Below are positions 2,486 through 10,339 of a stretch of DNA of 44,356 nucleotides, piece by piece. This DNA is from a phage, in sequence record QB031381.1. One strand, 5' to 3'. The notes under the pieces are model-generated. The model worked only from the letters and a program-made list of their open reading frames with translations. It was not told where the DNA came from and did not search any database. The stretch's first letter is position 1. Each line of letters opens with the position of its first letter. Made by a program: the position numbers and the translations under genes.

Positions 2486-3226
2486 ATGTTAACGAAAAAG
2501 GTTAAAAGCGATATCGCCGCGCACGTTGCGGCATGTCTGCCGGAAGAAGCCTGTGGGCTGGTTGTCATGGTGGGCCGCAAACAAGTATTTGTCCCGTGCC
2601 CGAACGTATTCGAAGACCCTACCGGCGTGCGCTCACGCAAAGACGCGTTCACGATTAGTGATATGGCCTGGATGGATGCGGAGGATATGGGCGACGTCGT
2701 GCGCGTAGTCCACTCGCATCCAGGCCAGCGAGAGCTTACCCCATCACTGGGCGACGTTAACGGATGCAACGGCAGCGGCGTAGTCTGGGCCATCACTAAC
2801 GAATATGGCGACTTTATCGAGATCGACCCTGAAGATCCTCCGCTGGTGGGGCGTCGATTTGTTCTCGGAATTACGGATTGTTACGGCCTCGTCATGGACT
2901 GGCACAAAAAGCAGGGAGTAAGCCTGCCTGACTTCCGCGTGCCGTATAACTGGTGGGAGACAGGCGAGAATCTGTATATGGATAATTGGTACGGCGCGGG
3001 CTTCAGGGAGTGTGAGGAAAATACGCCGGGGGCGATGGTTATCATGCAGATCAGCGCGCCAGTACCTAACCATGCCGGGATATTCCTTCCGGGCAACCAA
3101 CTACTCCACCATATCTACGGCAGCCTGTCGAGCGTGATACCCTTCCGGTCGGGATTTTTCCGGGACAATGTGGTTAAATGGGTACGTCATAAAGACCTAC
3201 CGGGGAATATAACAGAATGGCAATGA
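2486..3226 (+). CDS. Tail assembly protein K-like (MPN/JAB plus NlpC/P60-type)
   Basis: HSHP metal-binding motif with an upstream Glu (EEACG...VVHSHPG), then a C-terminal Cys/His segment (ITDCYG...DWH). Sits in the gpK position. Confidence 0.65.
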   Translation: MLTKKVKSDIAAHVAACLPEEACGLVVMVGRKQVFVPCPNVFEDPTGVRSRKDAFTISDMAWMDAEDMGDVVRVVHSHPGQRELTPSLGDVNGCNGSGVVWAITNEYGDFIEIDPEDPPLVGRRFVLGITDCYGLVMDWHKKQGVSLPDFRVPYNWWETGENLYMDNWYGAGFRECEENTPGAMVIMQISAPVPNHAGIFLPGNQLLHHIYGSLSSVIPFRSGFFRDNVVKWVRHKDLPGNITEWQ

Positions 3227-3834
3227 CCACATTTAAATTATACGGCGTTTTAGGACGTCGATTCGGTAAAGTGCATAAGCTGGACTGCTTCACTCCGGGC
3301 GAGGGTATCACCGGCCTGTGCGTGAAGTTACCCGGCTTACAGGACTTTCTAATGTCGGCCCACCTTGACAATATGATGTTCAAGGTGCGCAAAGGCGACC
3401 ACACGATGACCGGCTATGATGAGCTGGGCGAGTTCCACGGCAACCGCGTCGTTACCATCGCGCCAGTTATGACTGGCGCAAAAAGGGGATTGGGACAATT
3501 GCTGGCTGGTGTCGCGATTGTGGTGGCGTCGTTCTATACGGGCGGACTTGCTACTGCCGCTTTCGGGGCTTCGGCGGCAACCGCTGCCGCAATCGGGACG
3601 GCGACGTTTTCGTTCGGCATGTCGCTTGCGCTGGGCGGTGCTATGCAATTGCTGTCCCCACAGCCAAAAGGATTGCAGACCCGGCAGGACGTGGATAACA
3701 AAGCGTCGTACGCGTTCGGCGGGCCAGTGAATACAACCGCGCAAGGCACGGCACTTGGTGTATTATGGGGAGAGCGTGAGATCGGCGGCGCTATTATTTC
3801 AGCCGGAATCGTAACCGAGGACTTGAACGAATGA
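3217..3834 (+). CDS. Tail assembly protein I-like
   Basis: 205 aa with a Gly/Ala-rich hydrophobic C-terminal half. Position between K-like and J-like genes. Confidence 0.55.
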   Translation: MAMTTFKLYGVLGRRFGKVHKLDCFTPGEGITGLCVKLPGLQDFLMSAHLDNMMFKVRKGDHTMTGYDELGEFHGNRVVTIAPVMTGAKRGLGQLLAGVAIVVASFYTGGLATAAFGASAATAAAIGTATFSFGMSLALGGAMQLLSPQPKGLQTRQDVDNKASYAFGGPVNTTAQGTALGVLWGEREIGGAIISAGIVTEDLNE

Positions 3835-6800
3835 CGATTGTATACGACGTCACAGGCCATAAAGGCGGCGGAGGCAAACAGCACACCCCACAGGAGACGC
3901 CAGATAGCCTGCATTCGCTGGCTAAAATCCGCATCTTGCTTGCGCTGGGGGAAGGGGAATTCGAAGGCATTACGAGCGCCAGCGAATTACGGCAGCGCGT
4001 ATATCTGGACGGAACACCGATCCAGAACGCAGACCTGTCCGAAAACTTCCCCGGAGCGCGCGTGGAGTTCCGCCCCGGCACACAGCACCAAGATGTGATC
4101 CACGGATTTTCAGCGGTGGAAAGTGAGCAATCCGTCGGTGTAAAACTGGAAAACGGTACGCCGTGGGTGCGCCAGATCAACGATACCAGTCTTGACGCCG
4201 TGCGCGTTCGCGTCGGCATTCCTGCCCTGTACACTAGCGAAGATAATGGCGACCTGGTGGGCGGGCGCATCGACTATAAGATCGTTGTGTATACGGATAA
4301 CGCCGACCCGCGTGAGTTTACCTTCGCTGCCGTTGGTAAAACAATGTCGTTATACGAGCGCGATCACCGCATCGAGCTACCGCCGAACGTTAACACCGGC
4401 TGGCGCGTGGAGGTGCACCGCATAACGGCAGACTCCACATCGGCAAAAGTGGTTAACGATATCCAGGTGCAATCTATTACTGAGATTATCGACGCCCGTC
4501 TTCGCTACCCGCTAACCGCGCTGTTGTTCGTGGAGTTCGACGCTAAAGCGTTCCAGAACATCCCGCGCGTGTCCATCAAGTGCAAAGGCCGCAAAGTTCT
4601 AATACCGAACAACTACGACCCGATCAATCATACCTATTCGGGGGACTGGGACGGCACATTCAAACGCGCATGGACGGATAACCCTGCGTGGCACTGGTAC
4701 GATATCTGTATTACTGAGCGCTTCGGCCTCGGTCGCCGGATCAAACCGCAAATGCTGAACCGGTACGCGCTCTACCAGATCGCGCAGCGCTGCGATCAGT
4801 TGGTCAGCGACGGCAACGGCGGACGGGAAATCCGATTTAAGAATGATATGTACATCCAGTCGCAGACAGACGCCTGGACCGTGCTTAAGGATTTAGCTGC
4901 CATCTTCGCCGGGATGACCTGGTGGGGAAACCAAATGTTGAATATCGTCAGTGACCAACCGGTCGCAGCAGTGTCTCACACTATCACCAACGCCTCGGTT
5001 ATTGATGGTCGATTCGACTACGCATCTGGCAGCCAGAAAACGCGGTACTCCACTTTCGCGGTAGCATACGGCAACCCGAAAAACCACTATGATGACGCTA
5101 TCGCAACGGGCCAGCGCGTCGAACTGGTGCGCCGCCATAAGATTAACCGTCTTGATATAACGGCGATCGGCTGTACGCGCGAATCTGAAGCGCAACGCCG
5201 CGGACACTGGGCGCTAATCTCCAACCAGTTGGACCAGCAGGTCAGCTTTAAGGTTGGCATGGAGGGGCTATTCTTTATTCCTGGTAGCGTAGTCGCGATC
5301 GCGGATACTAATATTTCTGGCGGATTCGAGACTCGCGGCGGTCGCCTGTTGTCAGACCCTGGCACGCGTACCGTGCTTAATACAGACAGCGAAATCACAT
5401 TCCGCCCTGGTGATAAGTTCTTGGTGCGCACTGATAGCGGAAATGTGGAGACTCGCGAGATCGCCAGCGTCAACGGCAACAAGGTCACGCTAAAAACCGC
5501 ACTGGATGCCGACCCGATTCCAGACCAGCCGTTTTGCGTTGATGGCGACGATATCCAGTTGCAAAAATTCCGCATAACCGACCTGGAATATGACGACTCT
5601 ACCAGCACTTTCTCGGTGCGCGGGATTGAATACAACGATAGCAAGTATGATGCCGTTGATAATGGCGCTCGCCTTGATCCTGGTATCTTCACGCAAGTGC
5701 CAGACGGTGTAATGAAGGGGCCGGAATCCGTTACCATCACCCCGTCGCAGATCTCATCGCAAGGCCAGCTAATCACCAACGTGGATATTGTTTTCCCGCC
5801 GGTGAAGGATGCCGTGGTGTATGAAATCCAGTGGCGGCGTACAAGCCTGCAGAATATGGCGATCCAGTGGGGTAACGACTGGGTGAATATCCCGCGCACG
5901 GCGTCGAATGGGGCGCACATTCCTAACGTGTTCTCCGGAAACTATCAGGCGCGCGTCCGTGCGATAGGTATGGGCGAAATCTCGTCCCCGTGGGTGTCGT
6001 CCGCCATCACGCCGGTGGAAGGTCGCCTCGGTGGGCTTAACGCACCAATCATCACCAACGCGATTTCGGGTCTGCATCAAATTCTATGGAAGTGGAACCA
6101 CAACAACGCCGCGACGGATATCTCATACACCGAGCTTGAAGTGCGCAAGACTGGTGAGACGGAATGGAAATTCTTAACAAACGTACCATACCCCGGCGCG
6201 GAGTATGCGCAAACGTCGCTGGAGTTCGGAATTTACCAGCAGTTGCGCGCCCGTGTAGCGGATAAAATCGGCAACCTGTCGGACTGGTCGGCCCCGTTTG
6301 AAGGGCAGGTGAGTGACAAAGTTGACGAGTACATGAAGGGGCTTGATGACGAGTTCTTGACATCCGAGGATGGTAAACGCTTCCAGGAAGCAATCGACAC
6401 GATCCCGCAGGGTATTTACGAGGCGATGCTCACCGACGCGCAGCAATTGTTCAACGCCCGCGCCGAGTACAAGGGTATTTATGCGGAAATCAAGGTGGCG
6501 TATAACGTGGCGGCGGACGCCCACAAGGCGGTAGCTCAACTGGAAACGTTGATCGGCACGCGACTTGACGATGCGGAAGCGGCGATCCACACGTTGCAGA
6601 CAGCGCAAAGCACGCACGAGCAAGCCTTCGCCCAGTACCAGCAAACTGTTGCCGCTAAGTTCGGGGAACAGGAAGCTGCCATCCAGCAGGTACAAACGGC
6701 AACGGCAGACGTAGCGGGCGCGCTGGCGGAGTACAAGACCCAGGTCGCGGCACAGTTCGGTCAGCAGTCCGCCGCTATCGAGCAGAAGATGACGTCCACG

Positions 6801-7253
6801 TTTAACCATGCCGGTGGCAACGCCACATACAGCCTTAAGGCGGGCGTGACGTATAACGGGACTTACTACGATGCCGGTATGCAGCTTTCAGTTGTTGCGG
6901 AAGGTGGCGCGGTTAAATCCCGCATCGCGTTCAAGGCGGACCAGTTCTACATCATGCACCCATCTAACGGGTCGCTTTCGTCCGCGTTTATCGTAGACGG
7001 CGGCGCGGTGTATATTGACACGGCACGCATCAAAGACGCGACTATCAACTTCGCGCAGATCACGGACACGCTGCAATCGAATAACTATGACGGTTACTCG
7101 CGTGGTTGGCGCTTAGGGAAAGACGGAACGTTTATCAACCTGGGCACAGGTAGCGGTGGCGGGGCGATGAAAATGACGAATGATACAATCAGCGTCAAGG
7201 ATTCGAACGGAGTTTTGCGAGTTCAGCTTGGTAAAATCACTGGCAGTTGGTAG
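3831..7253 (+). CDS. Central tail fibre / host specificity protein (gpJ-like)
   Basis: 1140-aa ORF following M/L/K/I-like genes; size and position typical of lambda J-type tip proteins. Confidence 0.8.
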   Translation: MTIVYDVTGHKGGGGKQHTPQETPDSLHSLAKIRILLALGEGEFEGITSASELRQRVYLDGTPIQNADLSENFPGARVEFRPGTQHQDVIHGFSAVESEQSVGVKLENGTPWVRQINDTSLDAVRVRVGIPALYTSEDNGDLVGGRIDYKIVVYTDNADPREFTFAAVGKTMSLYERDHRIELPPNVNTGWRVEVHRITADSTSAKVVNDIQVQSITEIIDARLRYPLTALLFVEFDAKAFQNIPRVSIKCKGRKVLIPNNYDPINHTYSGDWDGTFKRAWTDNPAWHWYDICITERFGLGRRIKPQMLNRYALYQIAQRCDQLVSDGNGGREIRFKNDMYIQSQTDAWTVLKDLAAIFAGMTWWGNQMLNIVSDQPVAAVSHTITNASVIDGRFDYASGSQKTRYSTFAVAYGNPKNHYDDAIATGQRVELVRRHKINRLDITAIGCTRESEAQRRGHWALISNQLDQQVSFKVGMEGLFFIPGSVVAIADTNISGGFETRGGRLLSDPGTRTVLNTDSEITFRPGDKFLVRTDSGNVETREIASVNGNKVTLKTALDADPIPDQPFCVDGDDIQLQKFRITDLEYDDSTSTFSVRGIEYNDSKYDAVDNGARLDPGIFTQVPDGVMKGPESVTITPSQISSQGQLITNVDIVFPPVKDAVVYEIQWRRTSLQNMAIQWGNDWVNIPRTASNGAHIPNVFSGNYQARVRAIGMGEISSPWVSSAITPVEGRLGGLNAPIITNAISGLHQILWKWNHNNAATDISYTELEVRKTGETEWKFLTNVPYPGAEYAQTSLEFGIYQQLRARVADKIGNLSDWSAPFEGQVSDKVDEYMKGLDDEFLTSEDGKRFQEAIDTIPQGIYEAMLTDAQQLFNARAEYKGIYAEIKVAYNVAADAHKAVAQLETLIGTRLDDAEAAIHTLQTAQSTHEQAFAQYQQTVAAKFGEQEAAIQQVQTATADVAGALAEYKTQVAAQFGQQSAAIEQKMTSTFNHAGGNATYSLKAGVTYNGTYYDAGMQLSVVAEGGAVKSRIAFKADQFYIMHPSNGSLSSAFIVDGGAVYIDTARIKDATINFAQITDTLQSNNYDGYSRGWRLGKDGTFINLGTGSGGGAMKMTNDTISVKDSNGVLRVQLGKITGSW

Positions 7254-7278
7254 CACAGGGGTCCGTAAGGACCCCTCT
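7254..7278. terminator. GC-rich hairpin between convergent genes (putative bidirectional terminator)
   Basis: AGGGGTCC-GTAA-GGACCCCT stem-loop immediately after the J stop and before the stop of minus-strand ORF 7280..7945. No clear U-tract. Confidence 0.4.
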
Positions 7279-7279
7279 A

Positions 7280-7945
7280 TCAGTCATATTTAGTGGCATC
7301 TATCACAAGTATGGATGGCGAGTAATAAATGCCAAGCGGCCCCGGTGTGTGGGCTACTTGCTTAGATATCGAATAAATACTTGTCCCGGATGCGCCGGAT
7401 TGTGACTCGTAGATCGCGTGCCCGCCAATCTGAGGGGTGGGAACCGAGTTTATTGCCGTTTGTTGTGGTGATACAGCACATGTATACCCCAAATTAACAT
7501 CAAAAGACAGACCGTTTATCGGTATTTGGTGGGCCTCCAACGGCAACATTTTCCCGTGGTACACCATATCACCCGCAGAATTATAGAATGCGATCCCGTA
7601 GTCCCCCGGCGGTGTAACCATATCACTAAAAGCATAAACCTTAATCCATCCGGGGTTGTCGGTCTTGTCTAGCCGGAGAGCATGATAACCCCCGTTATTT
7701 ATGTGAGTGAATGCGGAGTACGCGCGCCCGCCCATCCTCACAAAGAAAAAGCACACGCGATCGAATGGTATTGGCGTTGTAAAAACAGAACCGCTATATA
7801 CACCCATATCACCGCGACTTATTAAATTAACAGGCGTAAATTCCGGGCTTAACCAAAGGGACCCATCTGGCTTTACAATCTGCATTCCGTACATGCTACC
7901 CCCAATACGTATATATAAATCTTGATACCCCAGCGTTAAAGCCAC
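7280..7945 (-). CDS. Hypothetical protein (GTG start; Gly/Tyr/Ser-rich)
   Basis: 221-aa ORF; the in-frame start at 7945 is GTG and overlaps the upstream ORF by 50 nt. Possibly the 3' part of a frameshifted gene. Confidence 0.4.
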   Translation of the reverse strand: MALTLGYQDLYIRIGGSMYGMQIVKPDGSLWLSPEFTPVNLISRGDMGVYSGSVFTTPIPFDRVCFFFVRMGGRAYSAFTHINNGGYHALRLDKTDNPGWIKVYAFSDMVTPPGDYGIAFYNSAGDMVYHGKMLPLEAHQIPINGLSFDVNLGYTCAVSPQQTAINSVPTPQIGGHAIYESQSGASGTSIYSISKQVAHTPGPLGIYYSPSILVIDATKYD

Positions 7946-8189
7946 TCCATGAAACAGTGTTATCGCTTACGGATATTGATGGCGCACCCCATGATGTGCC
8001 GCTCCATGTATGAGTCCCTACATATCCCGCCTTTAAACTTTTCCCCGGCGGCCGGTTGTAGTATGTCTTACTCCCGGATGGTTGCGTGAATTTGTCAAGG
8101 AAAAAAACCGGCGTTAGCAGGCCGGTAACATCTCGGCCTTGTCCGTCATAAATCGCGAACCCGTAGTTACTCACTTTTACACTCCACAA
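7896..8189 (-). CDS. Hypothetical protein
   Basis: 97-aa ORF overlapping the stop of the lipoprotein gene and the start of 7280..7945. Confidence 0.35.
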   Translation of the reverse strand: MWSVKVSNYGFAIYDGQGRDVTGLLTPVFFLDKFTQPSGSKTYYNRPPGKSLKAGYVGTHTWSGTSWGAPSISVSDNTVSWSGFNAGVSRFIYTYWG

Positions 8190-8436
8190 TTTTGAATTTA
8201 TCTTCGTTTTGCCATCTATGAACGAAAGTTACAAATTTCTGTGACGGGGATACCCGGTATTGTTTTTCTCCAAATCTATTTTCACGCACAGCGTTTAGTT
8301 TAACAGGATAGCTATCGTTTACAGGGAATGTTTTAACAACATATTGGCCTACGCAATCGACAGCCTTGTAGTTGCCGTCTTGTGACGCTGAGCAACCCGC
8401 CAAAAGAACCGCACAAATCATAATTAAGGTTTTCAT
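8167..8436 (-). CDS. Small lipoprotein (candidate Cor/Llp-like superinfection exclusion protein)
   Basis: N-terminal signal peptide with lipobox LLAGC (MKTLIMICAVLLAGCSAS), 89 aa. Encoded antisense between the J-like gene and the tail fibre gene. Confidence 0.55.
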   Translation of the reverse strand: MKTLIMICAVLLAGCSASQDGNYKAVDCVGQYVVKTFPVNDSYPVKLNAVRENRFGEKQYRVSPSQKFVTFVHRWQNEDKFKIVECKSE

Positions 8437-8515
8437 GGTATCATCTCCTATATTTGGTTGAGTTTAGTATTACACCGCTCGACCAGGATTGCAACCAATT
8501 TATGAGGATTCAGCT

Positions 8516-10339
8516 ATGGCAGCGGGTACACTATCCGTAACGAATAACAGCAAGGCGGTTGTCGGGGTGGGCACGACGTTTACCTCGTTTACAGCTGGCG
8601 ACTTCTTATCGCTGGTAGTGGGGCAAGTCCCATACACTGTTGCTATCGCGTCAGTCGAAAGCGACACCGCGCTTACGCTGGTGCTGCCGTTCGACGGCCC
8701 CACGGCAACGGGACTCGCGTGGGATGGCGTTAAGCGCGATACCATGTCGCTGGCAACGATGGGCGTAACAGTACAGGCGCAGAAAGCGTTGCGCTTGATG
8801 CTCGCGGACGAAAACAACTGGCGTGCGATCTTCGGAGACGAAGAAGAAATCACGGTAACGCTGCCGAACGGGCAAGTCATGCAGGGTATGTCGTGGGGCT
8901 ATCTGTCGCAATTGCTGAAGGAAGTTGACCCCGTTGAAATGCGCAACCTGCAACAACAAGCCGCGGCATCTGAAGCAGCAGCGCAAGGATTTCGCAATGA
9001 GGCCGAAGGCTTCAAGACTGAGACGGATGGCATTCGCGACGCCACCAATCAGATTAAGGCAGAAACGGCGGGCATTCGCGACGCCACTAATACCATCAAA
9101 ACGCAGACTGATCAGATTAAGGCTGATACGCAGGCGATCAAAGACCAGACTAACCAGATCAAGACTGACACCGGCGCTATTCGCGACGAGGCCAACGCCG
9201 CGAAGGCGGAAGCGCAAGCCGCCAGCACTGCCGCGCAGGGATTTCGCGATCAGGCCGAAGAATGGGCGCAAAGCGTAAACCCAGACAATCTGCTAACCAA
9301 ATCCGGCAACCTCGCCGGGCTTGCGGACAAAAGTGCGTCGTGGGCTAACCTTATGCCGTCAGGACCGCTTCGCGTAGGCGCGGACCCAGTCGACCCTCTT
9401 GACTCTGCGACTAAAGGGTGGGTGTGGCGCGGTCTTGATGACGTGGGGATTTGGGGTTTACGCAATAATTACGCTTCAGATCCGGCGAATGGCGCAGAAG
9501 TATACGGCGGTAGATTCGACTCATCTGTGACCGTTGCTGGGGCCGAAAAATACAGAACGTCGATTCAGCTTCAGGGGCGTAATAACGTAGACGCATGGAC
9601 CCGTTTGGCGACCGTTAACGTCCTCGACCCGGTGAACTCGCCGTCGTGGGACTTTAAATATGATGGTAGGCTTATTTTTTATAAAGCATTGTGGCCATCG
9701 TCCATTTCTGCGTCGCCTGTTAATACCTACGCGACCCTTCCTAATACCTGGATGGACAGCCAATACTCGGGCCATGTAGGTTTTGTCGGTGGCGGCGCTG
9801 GCACGGCGGGTGGTGGGTGGCGTAACTTCATTTCGTTCGGGGCGTTGATTCACCCCGTTGCGGGGTCATCACACCCTCACGCTATGATTTCGCAGGTCTT
9901 TGACTATGATCTGGCGACTGGAATGCAGCCTAACGCCGACATCGTTCGGAATACTACCTTTAACGCCGAGTCATACGATATTACCTTCGGCAACAACGCT
10001 GGGTCGGTTGGATATATTTTCGCAAAATCCCCGGTATCCGACAGGGCGCTGAAGCATGATATCGCCAGGATCGACACTCAAGTTGCGTTCGATAACGTTA
10101 TGGCAATGGAATACTCTTCCTTTGTTTATAACTACGACAAAAAGGAAACGGTCAGACGTGGTTTTATCGCGCAGCAGTTGGAAGAGATCGACCCGCAGTA
10201 TGTTCGTAAGTACACCAGCGCAACGGGTAAAGAGTTTCTGGCATTAGATGAAAACGTCCTTCTACTTGACCTTGTCGCGACTGTTCAGCATTTGGCGGCG
10301 AAGGTTGAGGCGTTAGAAAGTAAGTTAGCGGAGAAATAA
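8516..10339 (+). CDS. Tail fibre protein with C-terminal S74-type intramolecular chaperone/autoprotease domain
   Basis: The listed ORF starts at a TTG; the ATG at 8516 has a GAGGA RBS. Coiled-coil repeat region, then a C-terminal block beginning PVSDRALKHDIARID (Ser codon at 10037..10039) typical of self-cleaving fibre chaperone domains. Confidence 0.7.
   Translation: MAAGTLSVTNNSKAVVGVGTTFTSFTAGDFLSLVVGQVPYTVAIASVESDTALTLVLPFDGPTATGLAWDGVKRDTMSLATMGVTVQAQKALRLMLADENNWRAIFGDEEEITVTLPNGQVMQGMSWGYLSQLLKEVDPVEMRNLQQQAAASEAAAQGFRNEAEGFKTETDGIRDATNQIKAETAGIRDATNTIKTQTDQIKADTQAIKDQTNQIKTDTGAIRDEANAAKAEAQAASTAAQGFRDQAEEWAQSVNPDNLLTKSGNLAGLADKSASWANLMPSGPLRVGADPVDPLDSATKGWVWRGLDDVGIWGLRNNYASDPANGAEVYGGRFDSSVTVAGAEKYRTSIQLQGRNNVDAWTRLATVNVLDPVNSPSWDFKYDGRLIFYKALWPSSISASPVNTYATLPNTWMDSQYSGHVGFVGGGAGTAGGGWRNFISFGALIHPVAGSSHPHAMISQVFDYDLATGMQPNADIVRNTTFNAESYDITFGNNAGSVGYIFAKSPVSDRALKHDIARIDTQVAFDNVMAMEYSSFVYNYDKKETVRRGFIAQQLEEIDPQYVRKYTSATGKEFLALDENVLLLDLVATVQHLAAKVEALESKLAEK

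Follow-up and report, generated by a model that had tools for sequence, protein, structure and literature searches.

The locus downstream of gpJ encodes receptor-binding proteins (RBPs) and exclusion lipoproteins, and the receptor can be predicted from the allele (PMC8594841; 2026 preprint, bioRxiv 10.64898/2026.04.02.716166). FritzSarasin (Bas04) and KarlJaspers (Bas06) are btuB-dependent (PMC8594841, supplement; RB-TnSeq table of bioRxiv 10.64898/2026.04.02.716166), and JK16 and the Dhillonvirus K25 are BtuB phages in the same RB-TnSeq table. PTXU06 is shown in a comparison of Dhillonvirus RBP loci (PMC11990801). The lipoprotein Llp of T5, whose termini are constrained by a Cys11-Cys58 disulphide, binds the periplasmic face of FhuA (PMC9586334), and Rtp45 binds the periplasmic side of LptDE. 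Recognition of FhuA and of BtuB arose in the T5-like phages separately from its origin in the T1-like phages (2026 preprint).

We analysed a stretch of 44,356 nucleotides of phage DNA (record QB031381.1), below called the window. The source phage is a Dhillonvirus. The antisense block at 7280-8436 is an ordinary, already described three-gene host-recognition cassette, which very probably consists of a BtuB-type RBP, its small partner and a superinfection-exclusion lipoprotein, the BtuB specificity being assigned by homology to phages with genetically determined receptors. Literature and databases already contain loci of this type, with their link to BtuB, and nearly identical copies of the cassette (PTXU06, BEK2-2, K25-like phages). 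The following features were identified.

8466..8494, minus strand: promoter-like site, TTGCAA (8494..8489), 17-nt spacer, TGT-AATACT (8474..8466, extended -10 type)
8167..8436, minus strand: lipoprotein gene, 89 aa, with an ORF, a lipobox and a Shine-Dalgarno box
7896..8174, minus strand: 92-aa gene, GTG start overlapping the lipoprotein stop codon (GTGAGTAA)
7899..7903, minus strand: GGGGG, Shine-Dalgarno box of the 204-aa gene, within the final codons (Trp-Gly) of the 92-aa gene
7280..7894, minus strand: 204-aa gene, ATG start, probable terminal RBP of BtuB type
7257..7276, unstranded: GC-rich hairpin AGGGGTCC-TTAC-GGACCCCT between the convergent J gene and the cassette
7161..7253, plus strand: tip of the J-like gene, last 30 or so codons, travelling with the cassette
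7161..8397, unstranded: exchanged module (J tip, terminator, 204-aa gene, 92-aa gene and mature part of the lipoprotein)

The three genes are intact and abutting. They are flanked by the J-like gene (3831..7253, plus strand), which matches the Pfam families FNIII-A_GpJ and Phage_Tail_Tip and whose stop codon lies 27 nt before the cassette, and by the lateral tail fibre gene (8516..10339, plus strand), whose real start is the ATG at 8516. A small lipoprotein with an LLAGC lipobox, encoded antisense between these two genes, had been noted originally, and it is indeed present as the 89-aa ORF 8436..8167. Pfam contains no family for the lipoprotein, the 92-aa or the 204-aa protein. KarlJaspers and FritzSarasin carry these three genes in identical order and likewise convergent with J, and the gene order is also the same in JK16, PTXU06 and BEK2-2. 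Identity to KarlJaspers is 78% for the lipoprotein (52% to the FritzSarasin homologue, both phages being BtuB-dependent), 78% for the 92-aa protein and 81% for the 204-aa protein. The proteins are 52-70% identical to those of Bas04, and the PTXU06 cassette has 90.7% DNA identity to that of the window.

According to the original prediction, two ORFs downstream of the lipoprotein gene overlap by 50 nt, the second has only a GTG start, and the two might be one gene interrupted by a frameshift or joined at a recoding site. The overlap does exist between the mechanically called ORFs (7896..8189 and 7280..7945), but there is no 50-nt coding overlap between the real genes: it is a product of longest-ORF calling. 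The second gene has an ATG at 7894..7892, 2 nt past the TAG that ends the upstream gene, with GGGGG (7903..7899) before it. All nine relatives that were examined have this ATG (protein MYGM...). By contrast, GCG stands in place of the GTG at 7945 in BEK2-2 and PTXU06, and in the other relatives alternative starts upstream of the ATG are shifted in position or missing. The 92-aa gene most likely starts at GTG 8174 rather than at TTG 8189; the BEK2-2 and PTXU06 annotations also place its start at the GTG overlapping the lipoprotein stop codon.

A single gene of about 296 aa, whether broken by a sequencing error or mutation or read by programmed frameshifting, is extremely improbable. The 204-aa frame is open for 24 codons upstream of its ATG, which creates the 50-nt overlap, a run of five G stands immediately 5' of the stop codon, and the combined length is close to that of the single 321-aa RBP at the same position in Oekolampad. 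However, the junction TGGGGGTAR, followed after 1-2 nt by ATG, is kept in 9/9 relatives. The distance from stop codon to ATG is 1 nt in the window, BEK2-2, PTXU06, KarlJaspers and phiE31-2, where a +1 shift would be needed, and 2 nt in FritzSarasin, NBSal001, JenP2 and SaltyDalty, where it would have to be +2; thus no single recoding mechanism fits both groups. The frame relation expected of programmed frameshifting is therefore not conserved, and the downstream part has an independent, invariant ATG. The upstream GTG is lost in BEK2-2 and PTXU06, and the stretch open upstream of the ATG is only 9-11 codons long in NBSal001 and FritzSarasin. Eight of the nine substitutions that distinguish the overlap from BEK2-2 are silent in the 92-aa frame. 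Purifying selection acts on all three cassette genes (dN/dS 0.05-0.17) and is strong on both genes in question (0.05 for the 92-aa gene). No fused homologue occurs among 282 phage records or 10 metagenome clusters, all matches being about 204 aa long, and the 92-aa gene is separate in eight relatives, where it always ends with ...YWG-stop. Conservation of starts and stops, frame offset, substitution pattern and dN/dS in nine relatives led us to reject frameshifting and recoding. The comparison with relatives, suggested originally as a search for a fusion, instead revealed two clearly separate genes; stop and start are conserved for each of them, the start of the 204-aa gene being ATG. This outcome had been named beforehand as one that would count against the prediction.

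The promoter-like site scores 8/12, which is under the cut-off of the consensus scan, and thus was not listed by it. An almost identical stretch is found upstream of the lipoprotein genes of SSL-2009a and Oekolampad, and the sequence suggests promoter function. The three genes would then form one transcription unit, starting from this site, in the short interval that separates the cassette from the lateral tail fibre gene, and ending at the hairpin shared with the convergent J gene. Their translation may be coupled, as the first pair overlaps at GTGAGTAA, and in the second pair the stop codon is followed by ATG with the GGGGG ribosome-binding site inside the upstream gene. The hairpin (-17.5 kcal/mol, z -2.65 compared with shuffled sequences) lies 3 nt past the J stop codon and directly after the double stop TGATAG of the 204-aa gene. 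It is probably a bidirectional terminator, lacking a clear U-tract. Another hairpin, with a run of seven T, within the 92-aa gene (8126..8107) was considered as a candidate attenuator and is treated as a chance occurrence. Only the window and BEK2-2 have it intact; PTXU06 has a weakened form, the other relatives lack it, and terminator-like sites of this kind are just as numerous as expected from shuffled sequences. With exclusion and virion proteins in one coupled operon, a question of timing arises that is beyond the reach of sequence.

The cassette, downstream of J, opens with the lipoprotein gene, which has a Shine-Dalgarno box AGGAG at 8450..8445 and is followed directly by the 92-aa and 204-aa genes. 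The signal peptide MKTLIMICAVLLAGC (8436..8392) ends in the lipobox L-L-A-G-C with Cys15 (codon 8394..8392), followed by serine at +2. The mature domain has 74 aa, and dN/dS is 0.11-0.14. Cysteines C15 (lipobox), C28 and C86 are invariant in 28 family members; in the mature domain the latter two are residues 13 and 71, each close to one end, and mature Cor of SSL-2009a has cysteines at positions 8 and 56. A type II signal peptide with lipobox, a small mature domain (about 55-75 aa in this class) and an outer-membrane sorting signal are all present, as in lipoproteins of the Cor/Llp type.

The full-length lipoprotein matches the Cor family phrog_1119 (E 7.4e-7). However, this match disappears with the mature domain alone, which matches only phrog_27799 (E 1.9e-4), and membership in Cor by this route was rejected as a signal-peptide artefact: the signal peptide is common to cor-bearing relatives through recombination. 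On the other hand, the mature domains of five of the 28 family members do match phrog_1119 (best E 1.3e-7), and hhalign aligns the mature domain with mature Cor of SSL-2009a from the first cysteine to the last one (E 1.2e-4, probability only 55%). A PDB sequence search with the lipoprotein yielded nothing meaningful. Its AF2 model (pLDDT 48.6) was too poor and was left out of the fold search; in published work free Llp was mispredicted by AF2 (PMC9586334) and Rtp45 by AF3. The original proposal of a cor/llp-like lipoprotein is supported by the same position, the lipobox, two invariant cysteines placed as in Llp and similarity to Cor at the profile level.

It is probably an outer-membrane superinfection-exclusion protein aimed at BtuB, sequence comparison making BtuB a likely target rather than FhuA. 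The protein would be exported, lipidated on Cys15 and sorted, given serine at +2, to the inner leaflet of the outer membrane, where a Cys28-Cys86 disulphide probably closes it. Most likely it would sit on the periplasmic face of BtuB, the TonB-dependent vitamin B12 transporter, with the result that the outer loops refuse the phage, by analogy with the action of T5 Llp on FhuA. This would both exclude superinfecting phages and protect the progeny against adsorption to cell debris.

The 92-aa and 204-aa proteins match PHROGs 557 (phrog_557, E 2.4e-19) and 425 (E 6.4e-48), respectively, in both cases over the full length. [quoted passage not shown] The model resembles a solved RBP, PDB 9rpt chain C (Oekolampad-type fold), by a weak Foldseek match (E 0.017, TM 0.33). 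At the sequence level a profile search of PDB with the 204-aa protein for this chain was empty, and pairwise BLASTP produced only short chance-level matches; no meaningful PDB hits were obtained with the profiles of either protein. The 92-aa protein is 28% identical to orf25 of the FhuA-type phage SSL-2009a. By sequence comparison the FhuA- and BtuB-type receptor binders are detectably homologous, and on the evidence of predicted models the FhuA-, BtuB- and LptD-type binders, hitherto classed as unrelated families, seem to have one fold in common. Homologues with about 45% identity occur in JenP2 and Stx phages, and thus the family as a whole need not be BtuB-specific.

The J-like and tail fibre genes had been taken as the two receptor-binding genes; the 92-aa/204-aa pair is the likelier candidate for the terminal receptor-binding genes. 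The 204-aa protein is probably the terminal RBP of BtuB type. It would most likely be held non-covalently at the C-terminal tip of the J trimer, from where it would bind the outer face of BtuB. The 92-aa protein is probably its conserved small partner, possibly an adaptor, a second subunit or an assembly factor. It is very unlikely that the two are instead membrane-associated helpers of the exclusion lipoprotein and not virion proteins. The PHROG names imply such a role, the KanT1 paper also assumes it, and in PMC13164509 the FhuA-type pair is linked with cor and proposed to take part in exclusion; in the window the pair does share an operon with the lipoprotein. The literature yielded no virion proteomics for the pair, and in T1 cryo-EM the J C-terminus is unresolved, no small protein having yet been seen at a T1-type tip (PMC11945409). 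However, helpers in the membrane are hard to reconcile with the lack of signal peptides and hydrophobic segments and with the resemblance of the 204-aa model to a phage RBP. Moreover, no lipoprotein gene accompanies the pair in JenP2, in SSL-2009a it shares a transcript with J and not with cor, and in a Stx podophage it lies directly 3' of a tail fibre gene with a J-like tip. The J tip also co-varies with the pair, and AlphaFold3 models in the 2026 preprint predict that RBPs encoded in this locus bind BtuB (ipTM 0.79-0.82 for K25 and Bas06).

A hairpin motif (Y/F/W)G-x-x-I-x-(D/N)-x-x-G occurs in three copies across the pair, one at the N-terminus of the 92-aa protein; the other two coincide exactly with the two segments of the 204-aa protein that were modelled with low confidence. 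A similar motif, ISVKDSNGVLRV, ends J. One tentative and rather doubtful idea is that the terminal binder of FhuA- and BtuB-type T1-like phages is a two-protein cap formed by the 92-aa and 204-aa proteins and not a single protein. The three motif hairpins would dock on the three C-terminal hairpins of the J trimer and convert its three-fold symmetry into one asymmetric receptor-binding head. If so, the pair may be an overlooked host-recognition module in short-tailed Stx-converting phages, where it follows the tail fibre with the J-like tip. The 92-aa protein was also considered as a full-length paralogue of a domain of the 204-aa protein; this is not established, since hhalign aligned only a 14-residue motif (E 0.0095, probability 4%).

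Returning to the probable BtuB-type RBP, we consider it unlikely that this allele of the same cassette type uses another receptor. Receptor-contact loops can change quickly, the 204-aa protein differs by 19% from that of Bas06 and by 37% from that of Bas04, and more distant family members, with about 45% identity, sit in phages whose receptors may differ. However, the 204-aa proteins of Bas04 and Bas06 are themselves only about 60% identical, and yet both phages use BtuB; the window falls within this range. The receptor-specific families of the preprint hold together above 30% identity, it includes a BtuB-dependent Dhillonvirus, K25, and the lipoprotein co-varies likewise. In those parts of the preprint supplements that were available to us, no predicted receptor was found for PTXU06, BEK2-2 or Zar3M.

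The cassette and the J tip travel together. By blastn, region 7161-8397 has 76% DNA identity to KarlJaspers, the similarity starting at 7161, whereas the flanks (6501-7261 and 8393-9261) are 87-90% identical to SSL-2009a, a Dhillonvirus of the FhuA/cor type. The right-hand junction of the module is the lipobox cysteine codon. The final block of 60 residues scored in J (1071-1130) shows a drop in identity to SSL-2009a from 92-100% to 83% and a rise in identity to KarlJaspers to 62%. The C-terminal motif of J, AMKMTN(D/E)TISV, is common to BtuB-type phages, and the J tip co-varies with the cassette type. The module, together with about 30 last codons of J, was probably acquired by recombination into a Dhillonvirus backbone. 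Cassette swaps in Dhillonvirus have one junction in the last J codons and the other exactly at the lipobox cysteine, so that one promoter and one signal peptide serve three different exclusion domains. This pair of junctions offers a natural design rule for engineered receptor swaps. The locus sets which outer-membrane protein is used, and its sequence allows a prediction of the receptor: most likely BtuB here, as opposed to FhuA or LptD in most of the genus. Such predictions help in composing phage cocktails and in foreseeing resistance.

The closest described systems are the BtuB-type RBP loci of small siphophages (Maffei et al. 2021), situated directly downstream of gpJ (Bas06, Bas04, JK16, K25, PTXU06, BEK2-2, Zar3M), with genes for 89, 91-92 and 204 aa in the same order and convergent with J. 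Across Drexlerviridae and Dhillonvirus these have 52-96% protein identity and the same stop/GGGGG/ATG junction and J tip motif. The cassette of the window does not differ from them in substance. The Dhillonvirus copies have the Cor-type signal peptide of the genus and a 92-aa gene whose GTG overlaps the lipoprotein stop codon, whereas the Drexlerviridae copies have a signal peptide of their own and an ATG.

The FhuA-type cor cassette (T1, phi80, N15, HK022 and most Dhillonviruses) has the same position after J, and its lipoprotein is also small, with a cysteine near each end of the mature domain. In SSL-2009a, orf25 and orf26 are distant co-linear homologues of the 92-aa and 204-aa proteins (28% and 22%, respectively) from the same PHROGs, 557 and 425. 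However, in the FhuA type the pair is on the J strand and only cor is antisense, whereas here the pair is inverted and belongs to the transcription unit of the lipoprotein. The mature lipoprotein domains can barely be aligned, and the receptor is FhuA in the cor type and probably BtuB here.

The LptD-type locus (Oekolampad/Bas18, Rtp; PDB 9rpt) likewise combines an RBP (RBP_Oeko) with an exclusion lipoprotein (SE_Oeko, Rtp45). In Oekolampad one 321-aa RBP, with no detectable sequence similarity, replaces the 92-aa/204-aa pair, the J C-terminus differs, and the receptor is LptDE and not a TonB-dependent transporter.

Finally, in T5 (pb5, gene oad, and Llp) and the BtuB-binding T5-like phages BF23 and DT57C, an RBP gene stands beside a small exclusion lipoprotein gene. 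Llp, a lipidated periplasmic protein whose ends are joined by a disulphide, acts from inside to block a TonB-dependent transporter (PMC9586334). However, pb5 of T5 is a large (about 640 aa), unrelated protein and is encoded elsewhere in the genome.

The window is the genome of an E. coli siphophage of the Dhillonvirus type; many phages of that genus share its backbone at 92-95% identity. A cassette of three minus-strand genes, named here by product length, lies between the J-like gene and the lateral tail fibre gene:

3831..7253, plus strand: J-like tail-tip gene (Pfam FNIII-A_GpJ, Phage-tail_3, Phage_Tail_Tip)
7276..7257: GC-rich hairpin downstream of the cassette, common to the convergent J gene (-17.5 kcal/mol; z -2.65)
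7894..7280, minus strand: 204-aa gene, ORF with ATG start
8174..7896, minus strand: 92-aa gene, ORF with GTG start
8436..8167, minus strand: lipoprotein gene, ORF of 89 aa with signal peptide MKTLIMICAVLLAGC
8494..8466, minus strand: promoter-like site of the cassette (TTGCAA, 17 nt, TGT-AATACT), upstream of the lipoprotein gene
8516 (likely real ATG, after GAGGA), plus strand: lateral tail fibre gene, its product ending in an S74 chaperone domain

The lipoprotein ATG is preceded by AGGAG at a distance of 8 nt, and residue +2 of the lipoprotein is Ser. The GTG at 8174, most likely the start of the 92-aa gene, overlaps the lipoprotein stop codon (GTGAGTAA), whereas Drexlerviridae relatives have ATG at this position. 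The fibre ORF as listed begins with a TTG at 8489 that shares bases with the -35 hexamer of the divergent promoter-like site; the Peptidase_S74 intramolecular chaperone domain occupies residues 517-572 of this ORF.

A 'bona fide RBP locus downstream of gpJ', containing receptor-binding proteins (RBPs) and cognate exclusion proteins, horizontally exchanged and predictive of the receptor, was already defined by Maffei et al. (PMC8594841). The PTXU06 locus was shown among Dhillonviruses in a follow-up paper, which used a BtuB colour class (PMC11990801). Thus the type of the cassette is known, and public records include near-identical copies. KarlJaspers (Bas06) and FritzSarasin (Bas04) contain these three genes too, with their order unchanged and convergent with J. 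Both phages are BtuB-dependent according to the BASEL supplement (PMC8594841), and btuB is the top RB-TnSeq hit for both (bioRxiv 10.64898/2026.04.02.716166). The RB-TnSeq table of the same preprint includes JK16, and K25, a BtuB-dependent Dhillonvirus. JK16 likewise carries the cassette.

In that preprint the Drexlerviridae carriers Bas04 and Bas06 also need sdaC and dcrB, and the rows shown for K25 contain btuB only. If so, the cassette would set the outer-membrane receptor, not the inner-membrane or periplasmic requirements. The cassette also occurs, at 74-80% protein identity, in six records with T1-like or Dhillonvirus coliphage sequence labelled 'Campylobacter phage' (E6, A143, C4, A113: MG065643, MG065649, MG065657, MG065680; A144: MG065648) or 'Acinetobacter phage NJ01' (OQ221563). 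These are probably contaminant coliphages or mislabelled hosts.

The whole stretch 7200-8500 is common to only five phage records: BEK2-2 (93.5% identity), and PTXU06 and Zar3M (about 90.5%, two records each). About 55 other Dhillonviruses match only its last ~110 nt, where their annotated gene is 'Cor superinfection exclusion protein'. By local blastn, 6501-7261 and 8393-9261 match the cor-bearing Dhillonvirus SSL-2009a, and 7161-8397 matches the Drexlerviridae phage KarlJaspers (76%). On the right, the switch occurs precisely at the codon of the lipobox cysteine: promoter and signal peptide belong to the Dhillonvirus type, the mature lipoprotein domain to the KarlJaspers type. The left junction falls within the last ~30 codons of J. 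Compared with SSL-2009a, J is 92-100% identical along its length and just 83% identical in residues 1071-1130, the last 60-residue block scored, where identity to KarlJaspers jumps to 62%.

In Dhillonviruses, three mature exclusion domains that look unrelated follow a nearly identical promoter region and a single lipoprotein signal peptide, MKTLIMICAVLL(A/S)GC (window 8392-8494; SSL-2009a about 6000-6130; Oekolampad 9800-9930). These domains are Cor (FhuA type), SE_Oeko (LptD type) and, in the window, the BtuB type; the codon of the lipobox cysteine serves as the recombination junction.

The original prediction of a cor/llp-like exclusion lipoprotein was essentially right except for the receptor, which is probably BtuB. 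The full-length lipoprotein matches the Cor PHROG at 7e-7, but this match disappears with the mature domain alone. It stemmed from the Cor signal peptide, which came in by recombination; Cor membership on this ground was therefore rejected. The mature domain alone matched only phrog_27799 (2e-4). Of the 29 cluster representatives recovered by an exhaustive profile search, 27 are small lipoproteins (79-108 aa). Across these and the window's protein (28 sequences) the lipobox Cys, C28 and C86 never vary, and a DRFG motif recurs often. Mature domains match the Cor PHROG in 5/28 cases (best E 1.3e-7). Hhalign of the family against mature Cor of SSL-2009a gave E 1.2e-4 and probability 55% over 51 columns, running from the first Cys to the last. 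T5 Llp is built alike: a Cys11-Cys58 disulphide constrains its termini, and it attaches to FhuA from the periplasmic side (PMC9586334). Rtp45 acts equivalently on LptDE. Given the invariant cysteines, the Cor matches, the hhalign result and these parallels, the lipoprotein is best read as a distant exclusion protein of the Cor/Llp superfamily aimed at BtuB. The AF2 model of the lipoprotein was too poor to use.

The other two genes had been suggested to be one gene broken by a frameshift, or a recoding site, with the second ORF having only a GTG start. The 50-nt overlap is mechanically correct but is a product of the longest-ORF rule: the 204-aa gene has an ATG at 7894, 2 nt past the TAG of the 92-aa gene. 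The junction reads TGGGGGTAGCATG, and thus the final Trp-Gly codons of the 92-aa gene would double as the Shine-Dalgarno box of the 204-aa gene. All eight relatives compared (BEK2-2, PTXU06, KarlJaspers, FritzSarasin, phiE31-2, NBSal001, SaltyDalty, JenP2) have a separate stop, the 92-aa homologue ending ...YWG-stop in 8/8, followed after 1-2 nt by ATG; the 204-aa homologue opens with MYGM (MSYGM in SaltyDalty). BEK2-2 and PTXU06 have GCG in place of the GTG at 7945, and alternative start codons further upstream are lacking or lie at varying positions. A 1-nt spacer separates stop and ATG in the window, BEK2-2, PTXU06, KarlJaspers and phiE31-2, and a 2-nt spacer in FritzSarasin, NBSal001, JenP2 and SaltyDalty; the frame relation therefore varies, whereas a recoding site would need it to be conserved. 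Of the nine differences between the window and BEK2-2 in the 'overlap', eight are synonymous for the 92-aa gene if the TAG-to-TAA stop change is counted. Against BEK2-2 and PTXU06, dN/dS is 0.11-0.14 for the lipoprotein gene, 0.05 for the 92-aa gene and 0.07-0.17 for the 204-aa gene. No fused homologue was found among 282 phage records or metagenome clusters. Given the invariant ATG, the varying spacer, the silent substitutions, the low dN/dS and the lack of fused homologues in these sets, the frameshift reading is wrong, and the comparison indicates that each ORF is a functional gene of its own, with translational coupling between the two.

A terminator-like hairpin, ACCGGC...GCCGGT followed by T7, was observed at 8107-8126 (minus strand) inside the 92-aa gene, in the codons for the conserved VTGLLTPVFF. 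One possibility in principle is an attenuator between the lipoprotein gene and the RBP genes. However, of the relatives only BEK2-2 shares the hairpin with the window; PTXU06 has a weakened form and the others have none, so it is probably a by-product of codon choice.

The 204-aa protein matches phrog_425 (6e-48) and aligns co-linearly, as a distant homologue with 22% identity, to orf26 of the FhuA-type cassette. Neither a signal peptide nor a hydrophobic segment was found in it, so the name 'membrane associated protein' that it inherited has no basis. Its AF2 model (11 sequences; pLDDT 78.9, pTM 0.74) is all-beta. The top Foldseek match, a weak one, is 9rpt chain C, the solved Oekolampad RBP (E 0.017, probability 0.97, TM 0.33); a PDB profile search and pairwise BLASTP found no sequence-level similarity between the two. 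BFVD matches are uncharacterised 200-320-aa proteins of many siphophages. The 204-aa protein is probably the terminal RBP, which agrees with the AlphaFold3 BtuB-RBP models of the preprint (ipTM 0.82 for Bas06, 0.79 for K25; bioRxiv 10.64898/2026.04.02.716166).

The 92-aa protein matches phrog_557 (2e-19), is 28% identical to orf25 of SSL-2009a, and contains no detectable export signal. Conservation is high in its N-terminal half, and the C-terminal half varies. The gene always accompanies the 204-aa gene (FhuA-type phages, JenP2, SaltyDalty, TL-2011c), and its product may be an adaptor, a second subunit or an assembly factor. The names of PHROG 557 ('outer membrane protein') and PHROG 425 ('membrane associated protein'), which concern, e.g., SSL-2009a orf25/orf26 and JenP2 gp22/gp21, are probably annotation errors passed on between records. 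The 92-aa protein has a short hairpin-like motif, (Y/F/W)G-x-x-I-x-(D/N)-x-x-G, at its N-terminus; the 204-aa protein has it at the N-terminus and at residues 102-113, precisely the two segments modelled with low confidence. The end of J resembles this motif. This suggests, speculatively, docking by strand exchange.

The short-tailed Stx-converting phage TL-2011c (NC_019442.1) contains an unannotated 92-aa homologue (3717-3995, ending YIYTFWG) between the tail fibre gene gp61 and gp62 (4001-4618), the latter a 204-aa homologue (43-44% identity). Over its C-terminal ~190 residues gp61 shows homology to the J tip (E 1e-7), and both end in the same I-x-V-x-D-x-N-G-x-L motif. The pair is present in about 100 Stx phage records and may be an overlooked host-recognition module there.

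Oekolampad shares the locus layout: J is followed by antisense genes for a 321-aa RBP and a 73-aa exclusion lipoprotein and then by the lateral fibre gene, with a near-identical promoter region and a lipoprotein signal peptide differing by one residue. However, the LptD type has one protein where the BtuB-type cassette has two. FhuA-type phages have the 92-aa/204-aa pair on the J strand; compared with this commoner type, the two non-lipoprotein genes of the window are inverted, within the operon of the lipoprotein. JenP2 (NC_028997.1, Nonagvirus; 2564-3615) has a 93-aa and 204-aa pair antisense to J, preceded by just about 150 nt and no lipoprotein gene. In SaltyDalty (PP925825.1; 2460-3612), a temperate-looking phage, the lipoprotein, 90-aa and 205-aa genes are all co-directional with J. 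Since these two layouts differ, module orientation and presence of the exclusion gene can be regarded as free to vary. In locus type, gene content and position, and in its probable receptor and mechanism, the cassette matches what was known. The additions are modest: the precise recombination junctions, the pair in Stx podophages, and an apparent fold link between receptor-binder families described as unrelated (bioRxiv 10.64898/2026.04.02.716166).
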